Assembly: GCF_001457595.1 (NCBI RefSeq)
Contig: NZ_LN831039.1
Location: 2,040,001 to 2,072,000, forward strand
Source: Mycolicibacterium smegmatis
GTDB taxonomy: Bacteria > Actinomycetota > Actinomycetes > Mycobacteriales > Mycobacteriaceae
Length of the DNA: 32,000 bases
Reading direction: 5' to 3'
The notes under the pieces are model-generated. The model had not been told where the DNA came from and searched no databases. It was given only the letters and a program-made list of their open reading frames with translations. Shown piece by piece: positions 4,962-25,981 of this stretch (position 1 is the stretch's first letter; every line of letters begins with the position of its first letter). The translations under genes were made by a program, and so were the position numbers.

Positions 4962-4965
4962 CGGA

Positions 4966-5550
4966 TCAGCCTGCGGCGTCGGGCAGCAGCGGCGGGCAGT
5001 TGCCGAGCGGATCGGCGACCAGTTCGAAGTGCCAGGATTCGTTGGCGTAGATCTGGCACAGGCCGAAGCGCGGTCCGTTGGTGATCAGCCACTGATCGGC
5101 GCCCGTGCCGCCGATGTCGACGGCCTCACCGGTGACGTGACGCGACGCCGTGGGGGTCTGCACGTACTCGCGTGCGGCGGCCAGGCTGCCGTAGGTCTGA
5201 ACCGCGTTGTCGAGCAGGGTCTGCTGGAACGTGGGCGAGCGCCAGCCCGAGGTGACCGTCATGGTGATGCCTTCGGCAGCGGCGGCGTTCGCGGCGTTCT
5301 GCACGGCCGCCAGCAGCCGCGGATCGAGCTTGGCGATCGCCGGTTGCTGCAGGTCGAACGGCGAGAACGCCTGACCGTCGGCCAGCGAACCGTCACTGGA
5401 CGTCAGCGCCTCGGTGTTGTCGACGAGCGCGATCTGTGGGCTCGACGCAGGCGCGGTGAGCGCACCGGTGAGCACCGCCGAAGCGGTGACCAGGCCACCG
5501 AAGAGCCCCGCACCGATCCCCATGATCCTCCCCATCACGGAGTTCACCAT
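4966..5550 (-). CDS. Secreted VanY/M15-family D-alanyl-D-alanine carboxypeptidase-like peptidase
   Basis: Zn-peptidase M15 motifs 'SRHVTGEAVDIG' (SxHxxGxAxD) and 'NESWHFEL' (ExxH). Hydrophobic signal-like N-terminus MVNSVMGRIMGIGAGLFGGLVTASAVLTGALTAPA. I prefer the start at 5550 (M19 of the track ORF) because the 5604 start would overlap the LuxR C-terminus; 5535 and 5523 are also possible. Confidence 0.75.
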   Translation of the reverse strand: MVNSVMGRIMGIGAGLFGGLVTASAVLTGALTAPASSPQIALVDNTEALTSSDGSLADGQAFSPFDLQQPAIAKLDPRLLAAVQNAANAAAAEGITMTVTSGWRSPTFQQTLLDNAVQTYGSLAAAREYVQTPTASRHVTGEAVDIGGTGADQWLITNGPRFGLCQIYANESWHFELVADPLGNCPPLLPDAAG

Positions 5551-5563
5551 ACCGATCGGCGGG

Positions 5564-8281: not shown

Positions 8282-9191
8282 CGACCAGCGCCTCGATCTC
8301 CGCCGGGCGCAGGACGCGCTCGGAACGCCGGTCCGACAACCGGTCCGGCGCCCACGCCAGCGCGATCTGCGCAGGCGCCCAGGTCGCCTCGTCGATGGGG
8401 ATCAGCTTGAACTCCGGAGGCGAGAAGATCCGGCCGATCATCGATTCCGGTGCGTAGGTGACCATTGCGACCAGGTGCCGGTTGAACACCTGGGTCGCCA
8501 TCTCCAGCTCGCCGCCGAGCTGGTTGATGGCGCGCACGATCTTCGTGACGCCCTTGGCGTTGAGACCGCGCGTGAGGCCCGCGAGCACCACCGGGTTGGG
8601 CCGCGCGAAATCGATCACGACCTCGCGGTCGCGCAGTTCCTCGATCGCGACGACGTCCTTGGCGGCCAGCGGATCGTCGAACCGCACCGCGATCGCGCCC
8701 TGATACCGGGCCACCACCCGGTGGCGCAGCCGCTTGTCCGCCGACGGCAGATGGATCAGCCCGATGTCGAGGTGTCCCGACACCAGCTTGGCGGTGACCT
8801 CGGCGGCCGACCCGGGGACGCTGAACTGCGTCGGCGCCGCCAGGCCCGCGACCGCCTTCTCCAGCCGCGCCAGGAAATCCGACGGTGCGTACGCCGTGGC
8901 GCCGACCCGTACCGGCGCCACCCCCTGGGTGATGCGCGACGCGGTCGCCTTCAGGTCCTCGACGCGGGCCAGGATGTCGCGTGCGGGCCCCAGCAGCTTC
9001 TCGCCGAGCGGGGTCAGGCGCACCTCGTGGTAGTTGCGCTCGAACAGCTGACCGCCGAGTTCCTTCTCCAGCAGCTTGATCTGCTTGGACAGCGGCGGAG
9101 GCGTGATCATCAGCCGGTCGGCCGCACGTTTGAAGTGCAGCTCTTCGGCGACCGCGACGAAATACCTGAGTCGGGTGAAGTCGATCTCCAT
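8238..9191 (-). CDS. LysR-type transcriptional regulator
   Basis: 317 aa with the LTTR wHTH 'MEIDFTRLRYFVAVAEELHFKRAADRLMITPPPLSKQIKLLEKELG'. Confidence 0.9.
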   Translation of the reverse strand: MEIDFTRLRYFVAVAEELHFKRAADRLMITPPPLSKQIKLLEKELGGQLFERNYHEVRLTPLGEKLLGPARDILARVEDLKATASRITQGVAPVRVGATAYAPSDFLARLEKAVAGLAAPTQFSVPGSAAEVTAKLVSGHLDIGLIHLPSADKRLRHRVVARYQGAIAVRFDDPLAAKDVVAIEELRDREVVIDFARPNPVVLAGLTRGLNAKGVTKIVRAINQLGGELEMATQVFNRHLVAMVTYAPESMIGRIFSPPEFKLIPIDEATWAPAQIALAWAPDRLSDRRSERVLRPAEIEALVDELERAVARPAGGA

Positions 9192-9266: not shown

Positions 9267-11666
9267 TCACCGTTGGGCGGCCGTCACCTCCTGCGGCATC
9301 TCCAGCACCCCGCGCTCGATGAGCTCGTCGATCTCGGCGTCGGACAGGCCGAGCAGTTCCGCCGCGATTTCGCGGGTCTGCTCACCCAGCAGCGGTGCCT
9401 GACCCAGCGGCGGATCGGCGACCCGGTCGGAGTGGATCTGGACGTTCTCCATCATGAACGGCTCGGCGGCGTGCGGGTGCAGCTCCTCGCGGAAAGCACG
9501 ACGCTCCGCGTAATAGCCGAAGTTCGGCACCTCGCCTGCGTGCAGCACCGCACCGGCAGGCACCCCGGCTTTTTGCAGAAGCTCCATCGCCGCGGTCGCG
9601 GTGCGCGCGGACGTCCACGCCCGCACCGCCTCGTCGATGCGTGCGCGGTCGGCGTCCCGGCCGGCGGGCGTGTTCAGGGCGTCGTCGGCCGCGAGGTCGG
9701 CCCGGCCGATCACGCCGCACAGCGCCTGCCAGTCGGTGGTGTCGCGCACCGTGACCGCCACCCACTTGTCCTCGCCCTCGGCGGGGAACAGGCCCCACGG
9801 CGCGTCGTGCACCGGTTCGTCCGAGCGCGCATGCCCCTGCCGCTGCAGCACCTCCGCGGCGATCTCGCCCGCCAGGTGGCTCAGCATCACCTCGGACTGC
9901 GCGACGCTGACCGCGCCGCCGGTTCCGGTGCGCTCGCGGCGCAACAGCAGCGTCAGCGCGGTGAGCGCGCCGATGCGCGCCGCGACGTGGTCGGGGTAGA
10001 CCGTCACCGTGTCACAGAACTCGCCAGGCGCGTCGGGGTACACCCACAGGTCGGTGAACCCGGCCGCGGCCCGCACGAGCGGCCCGTAGCCCAATCGCCT
10101 GGCCCACGGGCCAGTGGGCCCGAACGCCGAGCTGTCGACCACCACGATGCCGGGATTCACCTTCTTCAGGCTCCCGAAATCCATGCCGAGCGCCTGTGCC
10201 ACACCAGGTTTGAAATTCGTGAGCACCACGTCGGCATCTTCGGCGAGGCGGTGCGCGAGTGCGCGGCCCTCGTCAGAACGCAGGTCGATACCGATCGAGC
10301 GTTTGTTGCGATGCCCGGACGCGTACGTCTGCGACATCATGTTGAGCCTGCCGCGCAGCCCGTCGGGAAACGCCGAATTCTCGATCTTGATGACGTCGGC
10401 ACCGAGATCGGCGAACAAACGCCCGGTGTCCGCGCCGACCACGATCACCCCGAGGTCGAGCACCCGGAGCCCTTCCAGTGGAAGGCCGACGTCTCGGCGT
10501 GCCCGGCCGCCGAGAACCGGTGCGCCCTCGGGAGGGGCGGACGTGCCCCGCGGTGCGGTGAGCGCGCTGGCGCGGTGGCCGTCCACCTCGGAGACACCCA
10601 CCGGCACCGGCGCGGTGAATCCGTTGGCGAGTTCGACCTCGCGGAAAAACCCACGCTCCTTGACCTGTTCGGTGTCCAGGGCCTCGGTCAGCGTGAGCAC
10701 GGCCGCGGTCGGCACACCGTGGCGTTGTCCCTCGGCCTCCAACTCCGCGCGCGTCTTGTCCGCACAGAACCGCTCGATCGCCGGGAGCAGCGTCGGCGAC
10801 ATGAAGCGCTCCATCAGGCTGTTGAACTTGGGGTCGGCGAATTCCTCGGGCTCACCCATCCACGTGAACATGCCCTGCCACTGGCGTTTCGCCAGCACGC
10901 AGATCCGCACATAGCCGTCCTTGCAGCGGACGATTGGGTAGCGCTGCCGTTCGGCGAGCCAGTTCCTGCGCTGTTCGGCCAGCGGCACACCGGCCGACGC
11001 CGTGCCCGGTGTGCCGAACGGTGGGTCCAGCGTCTGCATCGCCCCGTCGAGCACCGAGAAGTCGATGAGATCGCCTGTGCCGGTGCGTAACCGGTCGAGG
11101 TACACGCTCACGGTCATCACCGCGGCCTGCGCGGCGGCCACCTGGTACGGCAGCTGCGGCGCAGGCGGCACCAGCGGTTCGCGCCCCGGGATACCCGAAC
11201 GCGACAGCTCGCTGGTCAGCGCGTGCAGCACCGGTGTGGTGGCCTGCCACGTGCGGTACGCGGTGTCGCGGCCGAAGTCGCTGACCGACAGGATCACCAG
11301 CGAGGGGTGATCGGCGTGGATCTCTCTGGCCGACAACGCCTTCTCGGCATCCGAACCGGGCCGGGTGTTCTCGATGAGGATGTCGGCGTCGGCCAGCAAC
11401 TCACGCCAGCGCCGCGCGCCATCGGCTGTCGAGGTGTCGAGGTCGACGGTGCTCAGGCCGAACCGGTTGATGGCGGTGCCCACCGGAACCGCGCCGATGC
11501 GCGGCCCCACTGTCGCCCCGGCCTCGGTCACCCCGGCCAGGTTGACCGGCGTGACCTGCGCACCGAGATCGGCGAGCAGACGCCCGACCGCGGTGATCGG
11601 GCCGGACGACAGATCGAGGACCTTGACCCCGGAAAGGGGCGGATCGTAGGTGTCGGTGCTCGTCAT
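9267..11666 (-). CDS. Tandem-fused family III (CaiB/BaiF) CoA-transferase-like protein with two complete domains
   Basis: 799 aa. The N-half (about aa 1-385) has 'LSGVKVLDLSSGPITAVGRLLADLGAQV'. The C-half (about aa 395-799) has 'LEGLRVLDLGVIVVGADTGRLFADLGADVIKIEN...HRNKRSIGIDL...DVVLTNFKPG'. These are the family III N-terminal signatures, present twice. Confidence 0.85.
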   Translation of the reverse strand: MTSTDTYDPPLSGVKVLDLSSGPITAVGRLLADLGAQVTPVNLAGVTEAGATVGPRIGAVPVGTAINRFGLSTVDLDTSTADGARRWRELLADADILIENTRPGSDAEKALSAREIHADHPSLVILSVSDFGRDTAYRTWQATTPVLHALTSELSRSGIPGREPLVPPAPQLPYQVAAAQAAVMTVSVYLDRLRTGTGDLIDFSVLDGAMQTLDPPFGTPGTASAGVPLAEQRRNWLAERQRYPIVRCKDGYVRICVLAKRQWQGMFTWMGEPEEFADPKFNSLMERFMSPTLLPAIERFCADKTRAELEAEGQRHGVPTAAVLTLTEALDTEQVKERGFFREVELANGFTAPVPVGVSEVDGHRASALTAPRGTSAPPEGAPVLGGRARRDVGLPLEGLRVLDLGVIVVGADTGRLFADLGADVIKIENSAFPDGLRGRLNMMSQTYASGHRNKRSIGIDLRSDEGRALAHRLAEDADVVLTNFKPGVAQALGMDFGSLKKVNPGIVVVDSSAFGPTGPWARRLGYGPLVRAAAGFTDLWVYPDAPGEFCDTVTVYPDHVAARIGALTALTLLLRRERTGTGGAVSVAQSEVMLSHLAGEIAAEVLQRQGHARSDEPVHDAPWGLFPAEGEDKWVAVTVRDTTDWQALCGVIGRADLAADDALNTPAGRDADRARIDEAVRAWTSARTATAAMELLQKAGVPAGAVLHAGEVPNFGYYAERRAFREELHPHAAEPFMMENVQIHSDRVADPPLGQAPLLGEQTREIAAELLGLSDAEIDELIERGVLEMPQEVTAAQR

Positions 11667-11671
11667 GTCGG

Positions 11672-12865
11672 TCAGCTCCGGCGTGCCTCGCGGAACGGGA
11701 TGTCCCGGTCCACCTCGGGTTCCTTCGGCAGGCCCAGGACGCGCTCGCCGATGATGTTGCGCTGCACCTGATCCGTGCCGCCGCCGATCGAGGTGAAGAA
11801 CGCGTTGAGCGTGAGGAAGTTGATGTCGTCGGCCTCCGGGTTCTCCGGACCGGCCAAAAGCGCCTCGGCACCGATGATCTCGGTCTTGAGCCGCGCCTCC
11901 GAATGCAGGATGTGCGACATCGCGAGCTTGCCCAGCGACATGATGGACGTCGATGTGCCCTGTCCGGCAGAGGCTTTCGCGCGCGCGTTGTTGAGGCGGT
12001 TGAGTTCGCGCAGCGCGAGCACGTTCGCGAGTTCCTTCCGGATCGCCGGATCGTCCAGACGCCCGTGTTCGCGTGCCAGTTCGACAAGGCTGTCGGCCTT
12101 GGACTTGTTGCGCGATCCGCGTCCGCTGTCACCCATGATCGAGCGCTCGTAGGCCAGCGCGGTCTGCAGCACACGCCACCCGTTGCCCTCGCCGCCAACG
12201 AGGTACTCGTCGGACACCCGCGCATCGGTGATGAACACCTCGTTGAAGTGTGACTCACCGGTGATCTGCACCAGCGGGCGCACCTCGATACCGAGCTGCT
12301 TCATCGGGATGACGAAAAAGCTCAGGCCCTTGTGCTTGGGGACGTCCCAGTCGGTACGGGCGATCAGCAGCGCGTACTCGCTGGTCGCGGCACCCGAGGT
12401 CCACACCTTCTGCCCGTTGACCATCCACTCGTCGCCATCACGCACGGCCGTGGTGCGCACGGCCGCGAGGTCGGAGCCCGCGCCCGGCTCGCTGTAGAGC
12501 AGGCACGTGCGCGAACGCTCGGTGAGGAACTCGTACAGCAGGTGCTGTTTGATGGTGTCGTTGCCGAACATCAGGATCGTGTTGGCCGGGATGCTGTACT
12601 TGTCCAGGCGTGAGCCCGGGGCGCGGACGGCCCGGAATTCCTTCTCGATGACCGAGGCGAGCTTGTGCGGATACTCGCGGCCCCACCACTGCTTCGGGTA
12701 GGACGGCACGGCATAGCCGGCGTCGACGACCTTCTCCAGCCACGCGATGCGCTCCGGGGTGCTGACCCAGGGATCGGTCTGCTTGGGCAGGCCTTTCCAG
12801 TTCTGGGCGAGCCACTCCCGCACCTCGGCAGCCAGTTCCTCGGGGGTGGGCAGTTCGTTGGTCAT
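11672..12865 (-). CDS. Acyl-CoA dehydrogenase (probable catalytic, FAD-binding subunit)
   Basis: I place the start at ATG 12865 (MTNELPTPEEL...); the track ORF to 13267 is an extension into the upstream gene. ACAD motifs 'LLYSEPGAGSDLA', 'KVWTSGA' and 'GGGTDQVQRNIIGERVLGLP'. Confidence 0.9.
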   Translation of the reverse strand: MTNELPTPEELAAEVREWLAQNWKGLPKQTDPWVSTPERIAWLEKVVDAGYAVPSYPKQWWGREYPHKLASVIEKEFRAVRAPGSRLDKYSIPANTILMFGNDTIKQHLLYEFLTERSRTCLLYSEPGAGSDLAAVRTTAVRDGDEWMVNGQKVWTSGAATSEYALLIARTDWDVPKHKGLSFFVIPMKQLGIEVRPLVQITGESHFNEVFITDARVSDEYLVGGEGNGWRVLQTALAYERSIMGDSGRGSRNKSKADSLVELAREHGRLDDPAIRKELANVLALRELNRLNNARAKASAGQGTSTSIMSLGKLAMSHILHSEARLKTEIIGAEALLAGPENPEADDINFLTLNAFFTSIGGGTDQVQRNIIGERVLGLPKEPEVDRDIPFREARRS

Positions 12866-12866
12866 G

Positions 12867-13982
12867 TCAGGCGCCTTTCGCGGTGAGGTAACGCTCGCGG
12901 TGCTGAGCCGAGCTGCCGAACAGTTGCAGGCCGGTGCGGGCCCGGCGCACGAACAGGTGCGCGGGATGCTCCCAGGTGAAGCCGATGCCGCCGTGCATCT
13001 GGACGGCCTGCATGGCCGTCGTGTTGTACGCCTCGGCGCAGAAGAAGCCGGCCAGCGCGATCGCTCCCGCGGCGTCGTCGCTGCCCGCGGCCTTCTCGGC
13101 GGCCGCGTGCTGCGCGGCCGACGTCGACGACTCCACCTGCACCAGCAGATCGGCCGCCATGTGCTTGAGCGCCTGGAAGCTGCCGATGGCGCGGCCGAAC
13201 TGGATGCGGGTCTTGAGGTAGTCGATGGTGATGTCGAAGATGCGCCGTGTTCCGCCGACCTGCTCACCGGCCAGCGCGATCACCGCGAGGTCCAGTGCGT
13301 GGCTCACGGCGTCCCAGCCCGCGGTGCCGATGCGGCGCGCCGGGGTGTCGGTGAAGGTGAACGTCGACAACCGCACGGACGGGTCGAAAACGGTTGCCGC
13401 AGCGCGGGTCAGGCCTGTTGCGTCGGGTGTGACCTCGAAGATCCCGACGCCGCCCACATCATCTTTGCCGGTGCGGGCGACCACCAGGAGGACGTCGGCG
13501 ATCTGGCCGCTCAGCACGTAGTGAGCGTTACCGTTCAGCGTGTGGCCGTCGGCGCGCTCGGTCGCCTTCACGGCGACGCCCTCTTGTGCCCAGGTGCCGC
13601 GTGCCCCGGTCACGGCGACCGTCGCGATCGAGGTGCCCTCGGCGAGGCCCGGCAGCAGACGCTGCTTGTCCTCGGCGGTGCCTGCCGCTTCGATGAGCGC
13701 GGTGGCCAACACTGCGCTGCCGATGAACGGTGCCGGTAGCAGTGCCGCACCGGTCTCCTCGGCGACGGCCTCGAGCTCAAGAGCGCCGAGCCCGACGCCG
13801 CCGTACTCGGGATCGATCAGCAGCCCGGTCACACCCTGTGCGGCGAGCTTGCGCCACAACTGGGGGTCGTATCCCTCGTCGCTGCTGATCGTCTGCCGTA
13901 CGTCCTGCTCGGTGCACTCGTTCTGCAGCAGCTCCCGGACCGCGGCGGCCAACTCCGCCCGCTCGGCCACGCTGATCGTCAT
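12867..13982 (-). CDS. Acyl-CoA dehydrogenase family protein (possible non-catalytic partner subunit)
   Basis: ACAD C-terminal pattern 'IQFGRAIGSFQALKHMAADL...HGGIGFTWEHPAHLFVRRA'. I prefer ATG 13982 (MTISVAERAEL), preceded by GAAAGG, over 14012. Its stop lies 1 nt from the next ACAD start (TGAcATG). Confidence 0.85.
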   Translation of the reverse strand: MTISVAERAELAAAVRELLQNECTEQDVRQTISSDEGYDPQLWRKLAAQGVTGLLIDPEYGGVGLGALELEAVAEETGAALLPAPFIGSAVLATALIEAAGTAEDKQRLLPGLAEGTSIATVAVTGARGTWAQEGVAVKATERADGHTLNGNAHYVLSGQIADVLLVVARTGKDDVGGVGIFEVTPDATGLTRAAATVFDPSVRLSTFTFTDTPARRIGTAGWDAVSHALDLAVIALAGEQVGGTRRIFDITIDYLKTRIQFGRAIGSFQALKHMAADLLVQVESSTSAAQHAAAEKAAGSDDAAGAIALAGFFCAEAYNTTAMQAVQMHGGIGFTWEHPAHLFVRRARTGLQLFGSSAQHRERYLTAKGA

Positions 13983-14146
13983 GTGAACCGCCTTTCTGCG
14001 CGTCGCAACCATGCAACGCGTGTTCGGCGGACGTGTAAATCACGTATTAGGACACTGACAGATTTCCCAAAGGGAAACGCCAGGCGTGCGGGCAGATGTC
14101 CCCAGGGGTAACAGCCCAGGTCAGCCGGGGTCTATCACCCAGCCTG

Positions 14147-16909
14147 TCAACCCAGGTCGCCACCGGCCACCGGCAGGACGCTGCCGGTGATGTAGGACGC
14201 CTCGTCGGAGGCCAGAAAGCAGATCGCGGCGGCCTGCTCGTCGAGGGTTCCGTACCGGTGCATGAGCGACGAGGCGAGCGTCTGGTCGATGTGCGCCTGG
14301 AACCAGGCCCGCTCGGTGTCGTCGGCCGGCGCCGGGGTGCCGCGACTGATCCGCCGCGGCGGCGCGTCGGTACCGCCCGGCGCGGTCGCCACGACCCGGA
14401 TCCCGGCGTCGGCGTACTCCATCGCCAGTGACGCGGTGATCGCGTTGATACCGCCTTTGGCCGCCGAGTACGGGATCCGGTGGATGCCGCGGGTGGCGGC
14501 CGAGGACACGTTGACGATCACGCCGTGTCCCTGCTCGACCATCGCCGGTAGGGCCGCGCGGCACGCGTAGAGCGTGGTCATCAGTGAGCGGGTGATCTCG
14601 GCCTGGATCTCGTCGGCGGTGAACTGCGTGAACGGTTTGAAGTTGATCGCCCCGCCGACGTTGTTGATGAGCACGTCGATGTGCCCGAACTTGCGAATCG
14701 CCTGCCGGACAACTGTTTCTGCGCCGTCGGGGTGCTCCAGGTCGGCGGTGACGGCCAGGGTCGCCGGGCCGGTCTGCGACAGTTCGTCGGCGAGGTCATG
14801 GACCAGTTCGGCACGGTCGACCATGACCACACGGCCGTCCTCGGCGTTGATGCGGCGCGCGGTGTGCTCGCCGATGCCCTGGGCGGCGCCGGTCACCACC
14901 ACCACCTTGCCGCGGAACCGGCCCGGTGAGATGAACCTGGGTGTGCGTGCGGCCCGGACCTTTTCGCGCTCGGCCTGCTCCTGGTCGGCGAGTGCGCGGC
15001 GCATGGTCTGCTTGGCGCATTCGGCGTGCGCCGTGATCAGGGTCTTGGCCGCGGCGCGGTCGTGGGCCTCGAACGCCTCGACGATGCGGACGTGGTCCTG
15101 CGCGCACAGCGGGTGACACCAAGTGGCGTGGCGAAGCACCTCGCTCATGCGTCCTTTGACGTCGAGTGCCTGATACGCCTGCAGCAGGTGCTCATTGCCG
15201 GTCAGGGTGAACAGGTAGTCGTGGAATGCCGCGTTGGTCTCGGTGTACCGGGCCGCGTCGACGAAGCGGTCACCGTCCACGTACGGCAGTGTCGACTCGG
15301 CGAGCAGGCGATAACCGGCCAGCTGTGCGGTGCTCAACCGTCCGATCGTGAGTTCCAGCGCACCGAGTTCGAGCGCCTGGCGCGCCTCGAAAAGGGCATC
15401 GGACTCGTGCAGTTCGGGATGCTCCTCGCCGATCTGGTATCCGTCCGGCGCCACGGGTTGCGGTGGCTGCACATGCACCGGCTCGGGCACATCGTCGGGT
15501 ACCTCGACCACAGAGGCGGGGGCTGCGACTGCCCGGGCGGCGAAAACCTCCTGCCCCGCAAGCGATCGCGCCCCGCTCGCCCGCAGCGCACCGCCGTCGT
15601 CGTCGAGCTGGGTCGCGGTCCCCGGCGCGGCGGGTGCGATCAACTGACCGGCGATCCGGCGCGCGCTGTCGGCGTGGTCATGCCCCGGCCGGCTCGCGGT
15701 CTGTTCGGCCGGGGCCATGTCGATGCTCGACGGTATCTGTTGGCCGCAGATCGCGTCCGCGTCGGGAGCGGTGAGCAGGTTCTCGACCGGCCCCGCGGCC
15801 GATTCCTCGGCGGGGGATCGGTCGGCGGGCGCATCGGGCGCACCGGCACGGGTGAGCCCGAACTTCTCGAAGTAGAAACCGGTCGGCGTGACACCGGAAT
15901 TGGTCAGGTGGGTGCGGACTGCCTCGACCATGGGCGGTGGTCCGCACAGGTAGACGGCCACGTCACCGCCGTAAAGATGCTCGGAGCTGATCAGTTCGGG
16001 TATGCGTACCTTGTTGGCCGAGGTGCTCGACGGGTCGGATACGCAGTGACTCCACGTGAACGCGGGCAACTGGGAGGCGAATTCGTCGATGCGGTCCAGT
16101 TCGACCAGATCGGCGTCGGAGCTCACGCCGTAGATCAGATGGGCCGTGCGGGTGCTGCCGTCAGAACGCAGCTTGCCCAGCATCGACAGCACCGGCGCCA
16201 GGCCGGTGCCGCCGGCCAGCAGCAGGATGGGGCGCTCGGCCTCGCGCAGGAAGAACGATCCGTGCGGCCCGGTGAAGCTGACCGCGTCGCCCACCACCGC
16301 GCGTCGCGACAGGTACTCCGACATGGCCCCGCCGGGAACGAGTTTCACCAGGAAGGTCAGCAACGCCTCGTCCGGGGGGTTGGAAAACGAGTACGACCGC
16401 GTGATGTCGGTGCCCGGCACCGTGATGTTGACGTACTGGCCGGGCAGGAACGCCAGGTCGGCACGGTCGGGGATCTCGACGGTGAACCGGACCGTCGTGG
16501 CGGACAGGCGGGTCAGTTCGACGATGGTGCCTGTGTATCTGGTGGCCTGGGTCTTGGCGATGTCGGACGTGCCTGCGATCTGCAGCACCAGGTCCGAGCG
16601 TGGTTTCATGCTGCACGGCAGGACATATCCGCGTTCGGCCTCGTCGGGTGCGAGCGCGTCGTCGATGTAGGTGCCTGCGTCGTAGCGGCCCGACTCGCAC
16701 AGCGCCTTGCACGTGCCGCACGCGCCGTCGCGGCAGTCCAGCGGGATGTTGATGCGCTGCCGGTACGACGCGTCGGCCACGGTCTGGTCGGCGCGGCAGG
16801 TGATGAACCTGGTGACCCCGTCCTCGAAGGACAAGGCCACCGAGAAGGTTTCGTCGCCCTCCGGGGTGTTCGGGTGCTGCGCGGAATTTCTGTCGATCAT
16901 CACGGTCAT
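14147..16909 (-). CDS. Fusion protein: BenC-type benzoate dioxygenase reductase (2Fe-2S + FNR-like), low-complexity linker, FCD domain, BenD-type cis-diol dehydrogenase (SDR)
   Basis: One uninterrupted 920-codon ORF. aa 1-350 (nt 15860-16909): 'CRDGACGTCKALC...LPCS', 'RSYSFS', 'LLAGGTGLAP', 'YLCGPPPMV', ending 'GFYFEKF'. aa 351-500 (nt 15410-15859): Ala/Pro/Asp-rich linker. aa 501-640 (nt 14990-15409): FCD-like 'ALFEARQALELGALEL...AFHDYLFTLTGNEHLL...DHVRIVEAF...ITAHAE'. aa 660-920 (nt 14150-14932): SDR 'GKVVVVTGAAQGIG', 'NNVGG', 'YSAAK'. Confidence 0.8.
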   Translation of the reverse strand: MTVMIDRNSAQHPNTPEGDETFSVALSFEDGVTRFITCRADQTVADASYRQRINIPLDCRDGACGTCKALCESGRYDAGTYIDDALAPDEAERGYVLPCSMKPRSDLVLQIAGTSDIAKTQATRYTGTIVELTRLSATTVRFTVEIPDRADLAFLPGQYVNITVPGTDITRSYSFSNPPDEALLTFLVKLVPGGAMSEYLSRRAVVGDAVSFTGPHGSFFLREAERPILLLAGGTGLAPVLSMLGKLRSDGSTRTAHLIYGVSSDADLVELDRIDEFASQLPAFTWSHCVSDPSSTSANKVRIPELISSEHLYGGDVAVYLCGPPPMVEAVRTHLTNSGVTPTGFYFEKFGLTRAGAPDAPADRSPAEESAAGPVENLLTAPDADAICGQQIPSSIDMAPAEQTASRPGHDHADSARRIAGQLIAPAAPGTATQLDDDGGALRASGARSLAGQEVFAARAVAAPASVVEVPDDVPEPVHVQPPQPVAPDGYQIGEEHPELHESDALFEARQALELGALELTIGRLSTAQLAGYRLLAESTLPYVDGDRFVDAARYTETNAAFHDYLFTLTGNEHLLQAYQALDVKGRMSEVLRHATWCHPLCAQDHVRIVEAFEAHDRAAAKTLITAHAECAKQTMRRALADQEQAEREKVRAARTPRFISPGRFRGKVVVVTGAAQGIGEHTARRINAEDGRVVMVDRAELVHDLADELSQTGPATLAVTADLEHPDGAETVVRQAIRKFGHIDVLINNVGGAINFKPFTQFTADEIQAEITRSLMTTLYACRAALPAMVEQGHGVIVNVSSAATRGIHRIPYSAAKGGINAITASLAMEYADAGIRVVATAPGGTDAPPRRISRGTPAPADDTERAWFQAHIDQTLASSLMHRYGTLDEQAAAICFLASDEASYITGSVLPVAGGDLG

Positions 16910-16918
16910 GGCGGGTCC

Positions 16919-17434
16919 CTAGAAGTGGTAGATGTCCACCACGTGGTGGATGTAGTCGTTCTTCAGCACGACCGTCTTGCGCCGGATCAGCGGCTGTTCA
17001 CCGGAGAAGTCGATGGTGTAGAAGGAGGTCCCGTAGTACGGGTCGACCGTCTTGTACCGGAAATACATGGTGTGCCAGTTGAACCGGACATCCACCAGGT
17101 CGCCGCGCCGCTCGATGACCTCGACGTTGCTGATGTTGTGGCTCGTGCGTGGCTCGGGCAGCGATGTCGCCGAGGACCGTTCGGTGCGGATCCGGAACAC
17201 GCGGTCTTCCAGTCCGCCTTTGTTGGCGTAGTAGATCAGCGAGATGTCGCGCTGCGGATCCTCGACCAGTCGGTCGTCGTCGGCCCACGAGGGCATCCAG
17301 TAGACGACGTCGTCGGCGTAACACTCCAACCATTTCTCGAACTCGCGGTCGTCGAGATACCGGGCCTCCCGGTAGAGGAACTGCTCGATGACGTTCTGGG
17401 TGATGAGCTTGGCTGGCTTTTCGGTGGTGGTCAT
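16919..17434 (-). CDS. benB: Benzoate 1,2-dioxygenase small (beta) subunit
   Basis: 171 aa. 'VIEQFLYREARYLDDREFEKWLECYADDVVYWMP' is the typical ring-hydroxylating dioxygenase beta subunit (NTF2-like) pattern. It is 1 nt from the benA stop. Confidence 0.9.
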   Translation of the reverse strand: MTTTEKPAKLITQNVIEQFLYREARYLDDREFEKWLECYADDVVYWMPSWADDDRLVEDPQRDISLIYYANKGGLEDRVFRIRTERSSATSLPEPRTSHNISNVEVIERRGDLVDVRFNWHTMYFRYKTVDPYYGTSFYTIDFSGEQPLIRRKTVVLKNDYIHHVVDIYHF

Positions 17435-17435
17435 G

Positions 17436-18800
17436 TCAGTGCTCCGTGGGGTTCGAGGTGACGGCGCGGCGCAGGGTCCTCAGCCAGTAGCCGTGCTGCA
17501 CCGGGTAGAGGCCTTCGTCCTCGTTGCGCAGGCCCGACGAGACGATGCCGTGCATCCCCAGCGACTCCGCGACCGGATCGGGTCCGGAAAGCCAGTGCTG
17601 CGCACCGCGGCTCATGTCGTTCCACGGTGCGGCCTGCGCGCGGAACGTGAGCTGGCAGGACCGGAACTCCTCGAGGTCGTCGGGGGTGGCCATGCCCGAG
17701 GCGTTGAAGAAGTCCTCGTATTGGCGGATCCGGTGGGCGCGGGCCGCGGCGCTCTCGCCCTTGGGGGCGATGCAGTAGATCGTGACCTCGGTCTTGTCGG
17801 GCGCGATCGGCCGGAAATGCCGGATCTGCGTCGAGAACTGGTCCATCACGTAGACGTTCGGGTACAGGCACAGGTTGCGTGAGCCCTTGACCATGAATTC
17901 GCCCTTGGCTTCGCCGAATCGGGCCTTGAGCTCGTCGAGCCGGTCCCACAGGGGACGGTCCTGCGGGTTGGCGGCCCAGGTCCACAGGCACAGATGCCCG
18001 TGGGGGAACGACCAGTAACCGCCGCCGGACTTGCCCCAACTGCCGGCGTCGAGCGCCTTGGTGTCGTTCTTGGACTCGCCGCACGTGCGACGGCTGGTGG
18101 TGGCGGCGTAGTTCCAGTGGGTCGCGGTCACGTGGTAACCGTCGGCACCGTTCTCGGCCTGCACCTTCCAGTTGCCGTCGTAGGTGTAGGTGGACGCACC
18201 CCGCAGGACCTCGAGACCGTCCGGTGACTGGTCGACCAGCATGTCGATCACCGTCGTCGTGTCACCGAGATGCTCGGTGAGAGGCAGCACGTCGGGATTG
18301 AGGCTGCCGAACAGGAACCCGCGGTACCCCTCGAACCGCGCGACCTTGGTCATGTTGTGAGATCCGTTGGAGTTGAACGTGTCCGGGTACCCGGCGCCGT
18401 CGGGGTCCTTGACCTTGAGCAGGGTGCCGTCGTTGCGGAACGTCCAGCCGTGGAACGGGCAGGTGAGCGTGGTGCGGTTGTCGGTCTTGCGCCGACAGAT
18501 CATCGCGCCGCGATGTGCACACGCGTTGATCAGGCAGTGCAGGTCGCCGTCGCGGTCTCGCGTGATCACCACGGGCTGACGGCCGATGTAGGTGGTGAAG
18601 TAGTCGCCGGGGTTGGGCACCTGGCTCTCGTGGGCGAGATAGACCCAGTTGCCCTCGAAGATGTGCTTCATCTCCAACTCGAAGATCTCGTCGTCGGTGA
18701 AGATGCGGCGGTTGGCGCGGTAGACGCCGGCCGCGGGGTCCTCGATCACCGCGTCGGCCAGCACGTTCTCCAAGTGGTCGGGGGACAGGTGAGTGGTCAT
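17436..18800 (-). CDS. benA: Benzoate 1,2-dioxygenase large (alpha) subunit, Rieske oxygenase
   Basis: Rieske motif 'CAHRG...CPFHGW' and catalytic-domain 'DGYHVTATH'. I prefer ATG 18800 (MTTHLSPD...) because GGAGG sits 6 nt upstream; the track start at 18839 is an extension. Confidence 0.9.
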
Positions 18801-18888
18801 GTTTGCCTCCGGTTCGGCTCTTGACAGGCACTCTTCCAACGGGTGGCGGCCGTCACACTAGGGCATTTCCCAGTCCCGACCTGGGCAT

Positions 18889-18915: not shown

Positions 18916-19009
18916 ACCGAAAACAAGTCCTTGTTGCCTATGGATCGCGGGTCTACCGTCGGTTGTGTCGGCCATCACAGGCCGTGCCCGTTCGTCAGAG
19001 AGGTCCGCC

Positions 19010-19936
19010 GTGGAGCTCAGGCACCTTCGCTATTTCGCCGCCGTGGCGGATACCTGCCATTTCGGCCAGGCCGCCGAGCAGCTGCATGTCGCCCAGCCCG
19101 CGCTGTCCTACGCGATCCGTCAGCTCGAGACCGAACTCGACGTCACGTTGTTCTACCGCACCACGCGTCAGGTGTCCCTGACCCCGGCGGGGGAGTTCCT
19201 GCGGGCCGAGGCCGCGCGCATCCTCGCCGGCGTCGACGACGCCGAACGCGGCGTGCGACGGATCGCGCGCGGCCGCGGCGGACTGTTGCGGCTGGGCCTG
19301 ACCGGAACCGCGGCGTTCTCCCACCTGCCGCGGATCGCGCGCATCGTCAAACGCGAATTACCCGACGTGGCACTGGAAATCCATGCCGACATGCTCACCC
19401 CGGTCCAGTGCGACAGCCTGCGGTCCGGCGCGCTCGACCTCGGGGTGTTGCGGCCTCCCGCCGTCGGCGACGGCGTCGAACTCACCGTCATCGACGCCGA
19501 ATCGCTCGTGCTGGCGGTCTCGGCAGACCACCGCCTGGCAGCCGAACCTGTCGTGTCGATGGCCGACCTGCGCGCCGAACCGTTCGTGGGGTACGCCAGC
19601 CGTGACTCCGCGGTCAACGATGCGGTGCTGCGTAGTTGCCGCAGCGCGGGTTTCGTCCCCGACCGGGCGCACACCGCGCCCGGAACCGCGGTGCTGCTCG
19701 CGCTGGTCGCGGCCGACCTGGGCGTTGCGGTGGTTCCGGAATCGGTGCGTGCGCTGCCGCTCGACGGCGTGGTGTTCCGCGACCTGCTCGACGGCGGCAC
19801 CGTCGAATTGGCACTGGCCTGGCGACGTGCGGCCGACCGCGATTCTCACGCGAATCCCCTTGTCGGCTCAGTCGTCGACATCCTGGCCCCGGCGCTGAGC
19901 CGGGAGTCCGTCCCGAGTCTTGAGGAGAGACTGTGA
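19010..19936 (+). CDS. LysR-type transcriptional regulator (CatR/BenM-like by context)
   Basis: wHTH 'VELRHLRYFAAVADTCHFGQAAEQLHVAQPALSYAIRQLETELD'. I prefer GTG 19010, preceded by GAGAGG and matching the usual LTTR N-terminus; the track start at 18965 is possible. The stop overlaps the catB GTG start (GTGA). Confidence 0.85.
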   Translation: MELRHLRYFAAVADTCHFGQAAEQLHVAQPALSYAIRQLETELDVTLFYRTTRQVSLTPAGEFLRAEAARILAGVDDAERGVRRIARGRGGLLRLGLTGTAAFSHLPRIARIVKRELPDVALEIHADMLTPVQCDSLRSGALDLGVLRPPAVGDGVELTVIDAESLVLAVSADHRLAAEPVVSMADLRAEPFVGYASRDSAVNDAVLRSCRSAGFVPDRAHTAPGTAVLLALVAADLGVAVVPESVRALPLDGVVFRDLLDGGTVELALAWRRAADRDSHANPLVGSVVDILAPALSRESVPSLEERL

Positions 19937-21036
19937 AAATTGTTGCGATAGGCGCAATCCCGTTTTCGATCCCCTATACGAAGCCGTTGCGCTTCGCCTC
20001 GGGTGAGGTGCACGCCGCCGAACACGTGTTGGTTCGCGTGCACACCGACGACGGGATCGTGGGCGTGGCCGAGGCTCCGCCGCGGCCCTTCACCTACGGT
20101 GAGACCCAGCCCGGCATCGTTGCGGTGATCGAAAAGTACTTCGCGCCGGCCCTGATCGGTCTGACGCTCACCGAGCGCGAGGTCGCCCACACGCGGATGG
20201 CCCGCACCGTCGGCAATCCCACCGCCAAGGCGGCCATCGACATGGCCATGTGGGACGCGCTCGGACAGTCGCTGAGGCTGTCGGTCAGCGAGATGCTAGG
20301 CGGTTACACCGATCGGATGCGCGTGAGCCACATGCTCGGATTCGACGATCCGGTGAAAATGGTCGCCGAGGCCGAGCGCATCCGGGAGACCTACGGGATC
20401 AACACCTTCAAGGTGAAGGTGGGCCGGCGGCCGGTACAACTCGACACCGCCGTGGTGCGTGCGCTGCGTGAGCGGTTCGGCGACGCGATCGAACTCTACG
20501 TCGACGGCAACCGCGGATGGTCGGCGGCCGAATCGCTGCGTGCGATGCGCGAGATGGCCGATCTGGACCTGCTTTTCGCCGAGGAGCTGTGCCCGGCCGA
20601 CGATGTGCTCAGCCGGCGCAGGCTGGTCGGTCAACTCGACATGCCGTTCATCGCCGACGAATCCGTCCCGACACCGGCAGATGTGACGCGTGAGGTGCTC
20701 GGCGGCTCGGCCACGGCGATCAGTATCAAGACCGCGCGCACCGGGTTCACCGGTTCCACCCGCGTGCACCACCTCGCCGAGGGTCTCGGCCTGGACATGG
20801 TGATGGGCAACCAGATCGACGGGCAGATCGGCACGGCCTGCACGGTTTCCTTCGGCACGGCCTTCGAGCGCACCTCGCGCCATGCCGGTGAGCTGTCCAA
20901 CTTCCTCGACATGAGCGACGACCTGCTGACCGTCCCGCTGCAGATCAGCGACGGGCAGTTGCACCGCAGACCCGGACCGGGACTCGGCATCGAGATCGAC
21001 CCCGACAAGCTCGCGCACTACCGCACCGACAACTGA
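19933..21036 (+). CDS. catB: Muconate cycloisomerase (enolase superfamily)
   Basis: 367 aa with a GTG start preceded by GAGGAGAGA. The MLE-type pattern is 'FKVKVG', 'LYVDGNRGW', 'FAEELCP', 'IADES'. It lies next to catA and catC. Confidence 0.9.
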   Translation: MKIVAIGAIPFSIPYTKPLRFASGEVHAAEHVLVRVHTDDGIVGVAEAPPRPFTYGETQPGIVAVIEKYFAPALIGLTLTEREVAHTRMARTVGNPTAKAAIDMAMWDALGQSLRLSVSEMLGGYTDRMRVSHMLGFDDPVKMVAEAERIRETYGINTFKVKVGRRPVQLDTAVVRALRERFGDAIELYVDGNRGWSAAESLRAMREMADLDLLFAEELCPADDVLSRRRLVGQLDMPFIADESVPTPADVTREVLGGSATAISIKTARTGFTGSTRVHHLAEGLGLDMVMGNQIDGQIGTACTVSFGTAFERTSRHAGELSNFLDMSDDLLTVPLQISDGQLHRRPGPGLGIEIDPDKLAHYRTDN

Positions 21037-21069: not shown

Positions 21070-21963
21070 ATGACCACATTCGAAGCACCGCACATCGAGA
21101 AGATCGAGTTGGCCGAAAAGGCCGGGAAGGCCACGGCCGCGGCGTCGGGGGCGTCGGCCACCGAGCGGTTCCACCTCGACAAGTCACCGTTCGACGCGGT
21201 ACGTGACGTTCCCGCCGAACGTGTCGACCTGCTGGCCCGCGAGGTTCTCGACGCGGTGCACGCCACCATCCGCAGGCACAAGGTGACCTACGAGGAGTAC
21301 AACGCGCTCAAGGCGTGGCTGATCAACGTCGGCGAGGACGGCGAATGGCCGTTGTTCCTCGACGTCTGGGTCGAGCACGTCGTGGAGGAGGTCGCCACGG
21401 CGCACCGGCACGGCAACAAGGGCAGCATCGAGGGGCCGTACTACGTCCCCGACTCGCCCGAACTGGGCGCCGACGCGACCATGCCCGTGCGGCCCGGCGA
21501 GGCCGGCACCCCGCTGGTGTGGGAGGGCACGATCACCTCGACCGACGGGCGACCGCTGGCGGGCAAGGTCGAACTGTGGCACGCCGATTCCGAGGGCTTC
21601 TATTCGCAGTTCGCCCCGGGCATCCCGGAATGGAATCTGCGCGGCACCATCTCCACCGGTGACGACGGTGCCTTCCGCATCACGACGATGCGGCCCGCGC
21701 CGTACCAGATCCCCACCGACGGCTCGTGCGGAAAGCTCATCGCCGCGGCCGGCTGGCACGCCTGGCGTCCCGCACATTTGCACGTCAAGGTGTCGGCGCC
21801 CGGACACGAACTGCTCACCGCGCAGCTGTACTTCCCTGGCGATCCGCACAACGGCGACGACATCGCCACGGCCGTCAAGCCTGAGCTGATGCTCGATCCG
21901 CAGCCTCAGCCCGACGGCAGCGAGATGGTGCGCTACGACTTCGTCCTGGACCCGGAAAGCTGA
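21070..21963 (+). CDS. catA: Catechol 1,2-dioxygenase (intradiol)
   Basis: 297 aa. 'GSIEGPYYVPDSPELG', 'LWHADSEGFYSQF' and 'RPAHLHVKVSAPGHELLTAQLYFPGD' are intradiol dioxygenase signatures. The RBS AAGGAGA is upstream. Confidence 0.92.
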   Translation: MTTFEAPHIEKIELAEKAGKATAAASGASATERFHLDKSPFDAVRDVPAERVDLLAREVLDAVHATIRRHKVTYEEYNALKAWLINVGEDGEWPLFLDVWVEHVVEEVATAHRHGNKGSIEGPYYVPDSPELGADATMPVRPGEAGTPLVWEGTITSTDGRPLAGKVELWHADSEGFYSQFAPGIPEWNLRGTISTGDDGAFRITTMRPAPYQIPTDGSCGKLIAAAGWHAWRPAHLHVKVSAPGHELLTAQLYFPGDPHNGDDIATAVKPELMLDPQPQPDGSEMVRYDFVLDPES

Positions 21964-21970
21964 GCCGAGC

Positions 21971-22255
21971 ATGCTCTTTCACGTCCGGATGGACGTCCGG
22001 CTGCCCCACGACATGGACCAGGACACCCTCGCGCAGCTGGTCGCGCGGGAGAAGGCGTACTCGCAGCAGCTGCAGCGGTCCGGCAAGTGGCCGCACATCT
22101 GGCGCATTGTGGGGGAGTACGCGAACTTCTCGATCTTCGACGTCGAGACCAACGACGAGCTGCATTCGGTGATCTCGGGGCTTCCGCTGTTCCCGTACAT
22201 GGACATCCACGTCACACCGTTGGCACGGCACCCCTCGGATATCGACCAGGGCTGA
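21971..22255 (+). CDS. catC: Muconolactone delta-isomerase
   Basis: 94 aa. 'MLFHVRMDVRLPHDMD...EKAYSQQLQRSGKW.HIWRIVGEYANFSIFDV...LPLFPYMDI.V.PL..HPS' is the canonical CatC pattern and length. Confidence 0.92.
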   Translation: MLFHVRMDVRLPHDMDQDTLAQLVAREKAYSQQLQRSGKWPHIWRIVGEYANFSIFDVETNDELHSVISGLPLFPYMDIHVTPLARHPSDIDQG

Positions 22256-24481: not shown

Positions 24482-25981
24482 ATGTCGACCCTCGGTGATC
24501 TGCTCGCTGAGCACACCATGCTGCCCGGCTCTGCCGTCGACCATCTGCACGCGGTGGTCGGGGAGTGGCAGATGCTGTCGGATCTGTCGTTCGCCGACTA
24601 TCTGATGTGGGTGCGTCGCGACGACGGTGTGCTGGTGTGCGTCGCGCAGATCCGTCCCAACACGGCCCCGACGGTCCTGCTGGCAGATTCCGTGGGCAAG
24701 CTGGCCGGCCCCGACGACCTTCCCGTCGTCACCATGGCCTTCGAGTCCGGCGCGATCGGCCGGGGCAGCGACAAGGCCGGGCAGGGCTCCCGTACCAGGC
24801 CCGGACTCGACGTCGAGGCGGTCCCGGTGCGCCACCAGGGCCAGGTGGTCGCGGTGCTGACGCATCAGACCGCGCTCGCCGAGCGGCGGCTGACCAGCCC
24901 CCTCGAAGGCGCCTACCTCGACTGCGCCAACGACCTGCTGCACATGCTCGCCGAGGGCACCTTCCCGAACATCGGCGATCTCGCGATGTCGCGGTCGAGT
25001 CCGCGCGTCGGCGACGGGTTCATCCGGCTCAACGAGGGCGGTGAGGTCGTCTTCGCGAGTCCCAACGCGATCTCGGCCTATCACCGCATGGGACTGAACT
25101 CCGAACTCGACGGGCACAACCTGGTCGCGATCACGCGGCCGCTGATCTCCGACCCGTTCGAGGCCCAGGAGCTGGCCAACCACATCCGCGACTCGCTCGC
25201 GGGCGGTTCCAGCATGCGCATGGAGGTGGACGCCAACGGCGCCGCGATCCTGCTGCGCACCCTGCCGCTGGTCGCCGGCGGCAAGTCGCTGGGCGCCGCG
25301 GTGCTCATCCGCGACGTCACCGAGGTCAAGCGCCGCGACCGCGCGCTGCTGAGCAAGGATGCGACCATCCGGGAGATTCATCACCGGGTGAAGAACAACC
25401 TGCAGACCGTCGCCGCGTTGCTGCGCCTGCAGGCGCGCCGCACGAGCAACGAAGAGGCCCGCGAGGCGCTGATCGAATCGGTGCGCCGGGTCACCTCGAT
25501 CGCGTTGGTGCACGACGCGTTGTCGATGTCGGTCGACGAAGAGGTCAATCTCGACCAGGTCGTCGACCGCATCCTGCCGATCATGAACGACGTCGCCTCG
25601 GTGGACACCCCGATACGGATCAACCGGGTCGGCAACCTGGGTGTGCTCGACGCCGACCGCGCCACCGCGCTGATCATGGTCATCACCGAACTTGTGCAGA
25701 ACGCCATCGAGCACGCCTTCGACGCCAAGACCGAACAGGGCTGCGTCACCATCAAGGCCGAGCGATCGGCGCGCTGGCTCGACGTCGTGGTGCACGACGA
25801 CGGCCGTGGGCTGCCCGTGGGCTTCAGTTTGGAGAAGTCCGACCGGTTGGGTCTGCAGATCGTCAGGACGCTCGTGACGGCCGAACTGGACGGCTCTCTG
25901 GGCATGCACGACGTGCCGAGCGGCGGAACCGATGTGGTGTTGCGGGTGCCGATCGGCAGGCGCAGCCGGGGCGCGCAGTAG
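24482..25981 (+). CDS. pdtaS: Soluble GAF-PAS sensor histidine kinase PdtaS
   Basis: 499 aa with no TM segments. It has the HisKA_2-type H-box 'IREIHHRVKNNLQTVAALLRLQ' and HATPase motifs 'ELVQNAIEHAF', 'HDDGRGLP' and 'LGLQIV'. It is syntenic with Mtb Rv3220c. Confidence 0.88.
   Translation: MSTLGDLLAEHTMLPGSAVDHLHAVVGEWQMLSDLSFADYLMWVRRDDGVLVCVAQIRPNTAPTVLLADSVGKLAGPDDLPVVTMAFESGAIGRGSDKAGQGSRTRPGLDVEAVPVRHQGQVVAVLTHQTALAERRLTSPLEGAYLDCANDLLHMLAEGTFPNIGDLAMSRSSPRVGDGFIRLNEGGEVVFASPNAISAYHRMGLNSELDGHNLVAITRPLISDPFEAQELANHIRDSLAGGSSMRMEVDANGAAILLRTLPLVAGGKSLGAAVLIRDVTEVKRRDRALLSKDATIREIHHRVKNNLQTVAALLRLQARRTSNEEAREALIESVRRVTSIALVHDALSMSVDEEVNLDQVVDRILPIMNDVASVDTPIRINRVGNLGVLDADRATALIMVITELVQNAIEHAFDAKTEQGCVTIKAERSARWLDVVVHDDGRGLPVGFSLEKSDRLGLQIVRTLVTAELDGSLGMHDVPSGGTDVVLRVPIGRRSRGAQ

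Follow-up and report, generated by a model that had tools for sequence, protein, structure and literature searches.

An FCD domain without a helix-turn-helix between the BenC and BenD modules of a Mycolicibacterium smegmatis fusion protein

Why should the effector-binding domain of a family of transcription factors sit in the middle of a benzoate-degrading enzyme? The question is raised by a 32,000-nucleotide stretch of Mycolicibacterium smegmatis DNA (contig NZ_LN831039.1, positions 2,040,001 to 2,072,000 of the forward strand; hereafter the window). The third gene of a ben operon in this window (14147..16909, minus strand) is a single unbroken open reading frame (ORF) of 920 residues plus stop, which joins BenC, an FCD domain and BenD in one polypeptide and gives the operon the order benA-benB-benC(FCD)D. 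Classical BenC (~340 residues) and BenD (~260 residues) are separate proteins without an FCD domain. A first reading of the letters alone, referred to here as the original prediction, had placed an FCD domain at 14990..15409 (minus strand), that is, residues 501–640 of the ORF, and our translation agrees exactly with the residues it quoted. We describe the feature as a transcription-factor effector domain recruited to an oxygenase reductase; the architecture as such was known.

The domain is a bona fide member of the FCD family, as judged by profile match, fold and metal-site positions. A search with PF07729, on which the original prediction had staked itself, matches residues 506–629 (15023..15394, minus strand) at E 8.9e-15 and spans profile positions 2–123 of 125. 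The score is 55.7 bits, or 58.0 bits when the sub-sequence alone is scanned, where the gathering cut-off is 24.3. The AlphaFold2 model of residues 486–660, computed from an input that included 40 relatives, is a seven-helix bundle with a predicted local distance difference test score (pLDDT) of 94 and a predicted template modeling score (pTM) of 0.87. When this fold was compared with the PDB using Foldseek, the top 50 matches were all FCD/FadR-type C-terminal domains (probability 1.00, template modeling scores of 0.6–0.66), the best being DhdR, Atu1419, Ps5454, PmiR, NanR, McbR, PdhR, TM0439, DgoR and FadR. By its predicted fold the domain is somewhat larger than first proposed and covers about residues 498–655 (14945..15418, minus strand). 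At the level of sequence it is a distant family member: an exhaustive phmmer search with the FCD returned only 353 matches among 1.84 billion representatives. The single sequence finds no match in the PDB at E≤0.01, and a profile of 40 FCD relatives reaches PmiR, LldR and NanR at E values of 1e-7 to 1e-5.

FCD domains of the FadR subfamily follow a winged helix-turn-helix (HTH), and the original prediction had seen none here. Its observation holds for residues 351–500 and for every reading frame. Pfam gives no match to the GntR HTH (PF00392) at E≤1 on residues 351–660, and a profile built from the HTHs of the FCD clade's own relatives, which recovered 50 of 150 relatives as a positive control, yields only negative bit scores in all six frames of 14900..16100. 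Likewise, hhalign assigns a probability of only 0.05 to the alignment of the linker profile with the clade HTH profile. Since the N-terminal winged HTH that defines GntR/FadR-subfamily transcription factors is missing, the fusion protein is not a GntR transcription factor, and binding to operator DNA is unlikely for the same reason.

Pfam and NCBIfam place the FCD inside a catabolic polypeptide, between BenC and BenD, as had been claimed. The BenC module (residues 22–350; 15860..16846, minus strand) scores 471.3 bits with the equivalog hidden Markov model NF040810 (cut-off 430), and contains a plant-type [2Fe-2S] ferredoxin domain at residues 29–103 (Fer2), a flavin adenine dinucleotide (FAD)-binding domain at 128–219 (FAD_binding_6) and an NAD-binding domain at 230–332 (NAD_binding_1), the full complement expected of a BenC. 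The BenD module (residues 664–920; 14150..14920, minus strand) scores 411.3 bits with the equivalog model NF040811 (cut-off 380) and has the fold of a short-chain dehydrogenase/reductase (SDR), with a match to Pfam adh_short at E 3.9e-47, as expected for a BenD cis-diol dehydrogenase. According to the secondary structure of a full-length AlphaFold2 model, BenD begins roughly 8 residues after the long final helix of the FCD (residues 618–655). Between BenC and the FCD lies a Pro/Ala-rich, variable linker that is predicted to be disordered (residues 351–488; 15446..15859, minus strand).

How widespread is this arrangement, and is the FCD under selection? All of the best 120 database clusters share one six-domain architecture, with 66–83% identity and lengths of 834–929 residues, and the BenC-FCD-BenD architecture occurs in more than 120 clusters. 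We inspected the 80 best loci, taking one genome per species and searching with 11 closer sequences. The fusion gene has a BenA homolog upstream of it in 78 of these loci and a BenB homolog in 77. The taxa include Mycolicibacterium, Mycobacterium, Mycolicibacter, Gordonia, Williamsia, Skermania, Antrihabitans, Aldersonia, Nocardioides, Kribbella, Amycolatopsis, Saccharopolyspora and Kitasatospora, so that the fusion spans several actinobacterial orders. Across 120 homologs, the mean identity to the M. smegmatis protein is 0.74 for BenC, 0.32 for the linker, 0.84 for the FCD and 0.81 for BenD. The ratios of nonsynonymous to synonymous substitution rates (dN/dS; Nei-Gojobori, 497 gene pairs) are 0.25, 0.55, 0.135 and 0.21, respectively. 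With the lowest dN/dS and the highest identity, the FCD is the most constrained segment of the protein.

These values bear directly on the idea that the FCD is a non-functional remnant of a regulator, or an artefact that joins three genes. The adjoining linker is indeed of low complexity and evolves fast, and in one Gordonia neofelifaecis locus (L068) benC stands apart from FCD-benD. However, a decaying relic is contradicted by the dN/dS of the FCD and by its mean identity of 84%, one uninterrupted BenC-FCD-BenD ORF directly follows benA-benB in 78 of the 80 independent genomes, and the M. smegmatis protein is 100% identical to the database entry for the species and occurs in identical form on 8 contigs. 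A frameshift or sequencing error was also considered and rejected, as the other frames of 14800..16000 are ridden with stops and do not look like protein, in addition to the recurrence of the same ORF. We regard a remnant or artefact as effectively excluded. Among the complete loci of the 80, only the one from G. neofelifaecis has benC split off; its BenC (4509–5642) and FCD-BenD (5455–7281) lie in different frames, with the ORFs overlapping in the linker. Such a layout could be a true split or could result from a frameshift error within the low-complexity linker.

If the FCD is retained, are the residues retained that would allow it to bind a metal or a ligand? The original prediction had pointed to three histidines, H563, H606 and H628, at the canonical FCD metal and ligand site; alignment to solved FCDs places them there and adds a fourth ligand, N559, as the Asn variant of the Asp/Asn position. 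In profile alignments, N559 and H563 (codons 15233..15235 and 15221..15223, minus strand) fall on the D-x3-H of LldR, NanR and PmiR, with N559 aligned to D144 of LldR and H563, the first metal-site histidine, to the FH histidine of all three. The second and third histidines, H606 (15092..15094) and H628 (15026..15028, both minus strand), fall on the remaining two, namely the "eH" histidine of PmiR, LldR and NanR and the C-terminal histidine of solved FCDs. Ps5454 binds Ni2+ via His148, His192 and His214 together with Asn144, as described in the DgoR paper, and the metal ligands of TM0439 are His134, His174 and His196 (PMC7674646). The ligand spacing of the N-x3-H...H...H pattern is 4/43/22 in the M. 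smegmatis protein compared with 4/44/22 in Ps5454. Judged by position in the alignment, N559, H563, H606 and H628 reproduce the Asn plus three His site of Ps5454 and constitute a putative metal site. When 40 diverse members of the clade are aligned, H563 is the sole invariant column, and N559, F562, H606, E514, G516 and Y579 are each at least 90% conserved. H628 is invariant among BenC-linked FCDs. Helix 1, which carries E514, also contributes R510, invariant among the fusion homologs.

An intact tetrad could serve metal sensing or delivery, in that the site would bind Fe2+ or another metal and either tune the reductase to metal supply or assist in loading the mononuclear iron of BenA, which requires Fe(II). 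The triple-fusion clade moreover has an extra motif, W597-C598-H599-P600-L601-C602 (15104..15121, minus strand), in which 74 fusion homologs show no variation at W597, C598, P600 or C602. However, this Cys motif is absent from the BenC-FCD relatives and likewise not conserved in HTH-linked ones, and the metals of FCDs are reported to be tightly bound and used for effector coordination rather than for metal sensing (PMC7674646). We therefore consider a metal-sensing or delivery role unlikely. As an observation in its own right, W-C-H-P-x-C may provide the BenD-containing clade with another metal or redox site of its own.

A further motif immediately precedes the domain, DGYQIGEEHP at residues 489–498 (15416..15445, minus strand), which is 92–99% conserved in the fusion homologs. 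Across the BenC-linked FCDs G494 does not vary, and conservation reaches at least 90% at E495 and H497; the motif is absent from the aligned HTH-linked relatives. Its acidic and histidine residues could reach the metal site. We also considered whether its GY is what remains of the wing of a winged HTH (...RGYVVTPL... in relatives), a resemblance that is suggestive by eye and finds no support from hhalign.

Where did the domain come from, and to which enzyme does it belong? To sort the 150 best representatives by architecture, we ran phmmer locally and scanned ten of them with Pfam. A recurring architecture is a BenC-FCD protein of ~526 residues with a separate BenD, found in Corynebacterium and Enteractinococcus. 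Further architectures are Flavin_Reduct-GntR HTH-FCD (~384 residues, n=24), Flavin_Reduct-FCD without an HTH (~320 residues, n=12) and ordinary HTH-FCD (n=22), along with one OYE-HTH-FCD protein and one AMP-binding protein with two FCDs. In a neighbor-joining tree of the FCDs, which is without support values and indicative only, all BenC-linked FCDs form one clade, well apart from the HTH-bearing ones, with the triple fusion nested within BenC-FCD, while the Flavin_Reduct-FCD proteins without an HTH are interspersed with HTH-bearing ones. The closest relatives are BenC-FCD proteins with separate BenD, followed by Flavin_Reduct-(HTH)-FCD proteins. The original prediction had assigned the FCD to a reductase-dehydrogenase; this needs to be revised, as the two-part form with a separate BenD exists and the triple fusion nests inside it, so that the FCD belongs primarily to BenC. 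Of the two rarer proteins, one (P0155) is an OYE-type flavin mononucleotide oxidoreductase-FCD protein of 556 residues, whose HTH was detected by phmmer and is not among its stored Pfam domains; a gene for a stand-alone FCD of 178 residues comes after it. The other (P0246) is an acyl-CoA ligase-like AMP-binding protein of 905 residues with its two FCDs in tandem.

Because neighboring FCD groups in the tree carry GntR HTHs, descent of the FCD from a GntR regulator is likely, and HTH-less forms appear, again as an indication from the tree, to have emerged more than once in the FCD clade. The likely history is that a GntR/FCD regulator lineage joined reductases, that one branch joined BenC and lost its HTH, and that BenD was appended later in some orders. 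The suggestion that the domain may be the relic of a captured regulator is accordingly half right: a regulatory ancestry is likely, but a segment under stronger constraint than any other in the protein is no relic.

The FCD clade is joined to three unrelated folds of NAD(P)H-flavin oxidoreductases, namely FNR-type BenC, Flavin_Reduct and OYE. Three of four examined Flavin_Reduct-(HTH)-FCD loci lie beside oxygenase components of two-component monooxygenases. One gene forms an operon with a Bac_luciferase monooxygenase, another is divergent from an Acyl-CoA_dh_2 protein, which has the fold of group-D flavin monooxygenases, and a further one has an HpaB oxygenase on one side and a Bac_luciferase protein on the other; the fourth locus is on a very short contig. 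From the three reductase folds and the oxygenase neighbors of the Flavin_Reduct-FCD genes, we conclude at the level of sequence comparison that this FCD clade recurs as an attachment to reductase components in multicomponent oxygenases. Fusions of the types Flavin_Reduct-FCD and Flavin_Reduct-GntR HTH-FCD with such oxygenase neighbors (genes at 6001–6963 in L081–L083, 6001–7155 in L084 and 1947–2906 in L088) were not described in the literature we searched. Those with an HTH would combine a reductase with a transcription factor.

Could the FCD of the M. smegmatis protein still act on transcription, through a partner? As a trigger enzyme, the fusion protein would either form heterodimers with a GntR/FCD paralogue of full length or contact a LysR regulator, and the status of enzyme or effector would thereby feed back on transcription. 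The nearest relatives outside BenC are HTH-FCD and Flavin_Reduct-HTH-FCD proteins, so compatible dimer interfaces could exist, and the OYE-HTH-FCD gene precedes a stand-alone FCD gene. On the other hand, the BenC-linked clade is well separated from the HTH-bearing clades, the window genes that we scanned include no GntR/FCD paralogue, and the partner interaction is purely hypothetical. The regulator that adjoins the operon is of the LysR type (18965..19936, plus strand; NCBIfam and Pfam) and divergent from it, and by its position and family it is likely the transcriptional regulator of the ben locus; an HTH-less FCD is therefore not required for DNA binding here. We consider the trigger-enzyme explanation improbable.

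Having weighed these possibilities, we tentatively propose that the FCD senses an effector and gates or organizes the BenC reductase, by analogy with the MarR-like domain of the C1 reductase of p-hydroxyphenylacetate 3-hydroxylase (HPAH), to which we return below; we lean toward this answer and hold it with less than even confidence. The FCD would be a working effector and metal module from a GntR/FadR-type regulator that has lost its HTH and acts in cis on the enzyme instead of on DNA. According to the alignment, N559, H563, H606 and H628 would hold a divalent metal, and an aromatic carboxylate of the pathway would bind the metal via its carboxylate group, with benzoate as first candidate and the cis-diol, catechol and cis,cis-muconate as alternatives. 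A pathway carboxylate is proposed because metal-containing FCDs bind carboxylate effectors on the metal, and because of the analogy with C1. The changed FCD, which is probably dimeric, would then alter electron transfer in BenC along the path NADH → FAD → [2Fe-2S] → BenAB. If the system behaves like C1, electrons would be supplied only with substrate present, resulting in less futile NADH oxidation and fewer reactive oxygen species. BenD, joined to the C-terminus later in some lineages, may, more speculatively, permit local recycling of NAD+ and NADH between BenC and BenD. In terms of the original prediction, allosteric control of benzoate flux by an acid ligand or metal is plausible in that a documented analogue exists in C1; the identity of the effector and the coupling to BenC are the conjectural parts of it.

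The observations that suggest this tentative assignment are: (i) a folded FCD domain, (ii) its strong constraint, (iii) an intact site, (iv) its conservation in nearly all loci, (v) the recurrent reductase partners, (vi) the apparently repeated emergence of HTH-less forms in the clade, (vii) the precedent of C1 and (viii) a LysR regulator beside the operon. Several points weigh against it. The full-length AlphaFold2 model (pTM 0.42) shows no confident packing between domains, and Fer2 itself is poorly predicted. The linker between BenC and the FCD, 69–152 residues of predicted disorder, would be an awkward allosteric lever, and in the modeled triple fusion the FCD appears rigidly close to BenD and not to BenC. 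Conservation of the metal site is equally expected for a purely structural metal, and since FCDs are also the dimerization domains of FadR-type regulators, the constraint could reflect assembly alone. Finally, the analogy with C1 spans a different, MarR-like effector fold and a different class of reductase, and for all members of the clade effector sensing is argued by analogy.

The same points lend weight to the main rival, an assembly scaffold, in which the FCD dimerizes BenC (and BenD) units or docks them on BenAB, with a structural metal and no effector. In the Foldseek comparison, the FCD matches solved structures described as dimerization domains, such as PdhR (5tpm). Strong constraint and a kept metal site suit a structural role equally well, a flexible linker fits a tether better than a lever, and the fusion to BenD suggests selection for co-assembly. 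SDR enzymes of the BenD type form tetramers. What speaks against a scaffold is that the full polar pocket (N/H/H/H with R510 and E514) is kept across a clade that is otherwise only 30–40% identical, and a plain dimerizing domain would not need all of it. In addition, the repeated recruitment of one FCD clade to oxygenase reductases points beyond generic dimerization, and FadR dimerizes without the histidines (PMC7674646). Based on these observations, we judge a pure scaffold to be somewhat less likely than the effector-gated reductase, of which it is the strongest competitor.

The linker deserves separate mention. The full-length model gives it a pLDDT below 50, and among homologs it varies greatly in sequence and length. 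It nevertheless contains up to three copies of a motif with the consensus [D/A]-A-R-x-[I/V/L]-[A/G]-G-Q-x-[M/L]-[F/L], in which the G-Q pairs are invariant or ~90% conserved while the neighboring sequence varies. Copy 1 (DADAICGQQI, residues 383–392; 15734..15763) reads DARAVAGQVML in most homologs, with G389 and Q390 invariant in alignment A4. Copy 2 (ARRIAGQLI, residues 416–424; 15638..15664) has G421 and Q422 conserved at 91%; it alone within the linker shows a slight rise in pLDDT and predicted secondary structure. Copy 3 (GARSLAGQEVF, residues 446–456; 15542..15574; all three copies on the minus strand) is preceded by an LDxDDGxL stretch and has R448, G452 and Q453 invariant in the same alignment and F456 conserved to at least 90%. 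The linker looks like three degenerate repeats of ~35 residues, and the motifs could be docking peptides. A 697-residue metagenomic BenC-FCD protein of a separate lineage (P0133) has a linker at about residues 340–535 with three copies of a related yet different motif, I-A-[A/S]-R-P-V-G-[F/Y]-x-P, and the short-linker BenC-FCD proteins of the Corynebacterium type (~35 residues) have no such motif. Since they are present in both long-linker lineages and not in the short-linker type, "AR-x-V/I-G" peptides recur wherever the linker is long.

The benB gene, for the benzoate dioxygenase beta subunit (16919..17434, minus strand), has its stop 9 nucleotides ahead of the benC start, and benA, for the Rieske oxygenase alpha subunit, occupies 17436..18839 (minus strand). 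The cat genes follow the LysR gene, divergent from the ben operon, in the order catB (19933..21036), catA (21070..21963) and catC (21890..22252), as identified by NCBIfam and Pfam. Downstream of the ben operon are two acyl-CoA dehydrogenase-like genes (12867..14012, IpdE2/PimD-like, and 11672..13267, minus strand), a gene for a 799-residue protein with two family-III CoA-transferase halves (9267..11666, minus strand) and a second LysR gene (8238..9191). The ben-cat cluster is flanked by genes for a PdtaS-type GAF histidine kinase (24482..25978, plus strand) and for a large AAA-LuxR (GerE) regulator (5567..8281, minus strand). In Gordonia YC-RL2, a LuxR regulator was reported downstream of benABCD (PMC6362181).

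What would follow? An FCD is built into the reductase of benzoate dioxygenase across much of Actinomycetota and is under strong purifying selection there, and the hosts include tractable models, namely M. smegmatis for the triple fusion and corynebacteria and rhodococci for the two-part version. Benzoate dioxygenase is a textbook Rieske oxygenase and is assumed to be controlled at transcription only. If the FCD senses a pathway metabolite, it would add a post-translational layer that matches electron supply to substrate, with less waste of NADH and less oxidative damage, which would be relevant to engineering muconate or catechol production in such hosts. It would also mean that effector domains of GntR regulators, in the same way as MarR-like ones, have repeatedly been turned from regulators of genes into regulators of enzymes. 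In a wider and slightly more tentative version, the FCD would switch the supply of electrons to a Rieske dioxygenase in response to substrate or product, and would be the tip of an unrecognized GntR/FCD-reductase class (BenC, Flavin_Reduct and OYE), in which members that keep the HTH would be bifunctional enzyme-regulators and HTH-less ones pure allosteric modules. If the FCD is a scaffold only, the finding amounts to a modest note on domain architecture.

How does the protein compare with what has been described? To our knowledge, and in the literature we searched, no domain derived from a transcription factor has been described as exerting effector control on the reductase of a Rieske oxygenase. 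The original prediction knew of no described example of the architecture, which does not quite hold. More than a hundred database clusters carry it, and NCBI labels hundreds of BenC-FCD-BenD proteins simply BenC. A benC-FCD-benD fusion has been mentioned for Gordonia alkanivorans YC-RL2, where it was noted as unusual for Gordonia (PMC6362181), and the BenC of Rhodococcus sp. TG-1, termed an "FCD domain-containing protein" (PMC11858498), is a two-part version. Both papers give the annotation only and treat neither its conservation and metal site nor its relatives and function, and we found no functional, structural or evolutionary treatment of the fusion in the open-access literature searched. 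The Gordonia proteins share the architecture and are 66–70% identical to the M. smegmatis protein. The locus resembles benABCD of Acinetobacter and Pseudomonas in the gene order benA-benB-benC-benD and in having a LysR gene and cat genes alongside.

With the metal-containing FCDs of the FadR subfamily (Ps5454/3C7J, TM0439, LldR/2DI3, NanR, DgoR, DhdR, Atu1419 and PmiR), the domain shares the Pfam family, the helical bundle and the metal positions. It differs from them in that it lacks a winged HTH, lies inside an enzyme chain, is distant in sequence and has motifs of its own, GYQIGEEHP and WCHPxC.

The nearest functional parallel is C1 of HPAH from Acinetobacter baumannii, a flavin reductase with a MarR/NadR-like C-terminal domain that binds the substrate of the oxygenase (PMC11618861). 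Substrate binding to C1 makes NADH binding 80-fold tighter and hydride transfer 20-fold faster, and reduces the waste of NADH and the formation of H2O2 (PMC11618861). Both proteins have the reductase of a multicomponent aromatic-acid oxygenase combined with an effector domain that derives from a transcription factor and has no DNA-binding role. However, the effector domain is an FCD here and MarR/NadR-like in C1, two different folds, and an FNR-type [2Fe-2S] reductase serving a Rieske dioxygenase takes the place of a Flavin_Reduct protein serving a flavin monooxygenase. Regulation is demonstrated in C1 and, by analogy, proposed here. Since effector domain and reductase are both of different folds, BenC-FCD-BenD is an analogue of the HPAH C1 class and not a member of it.

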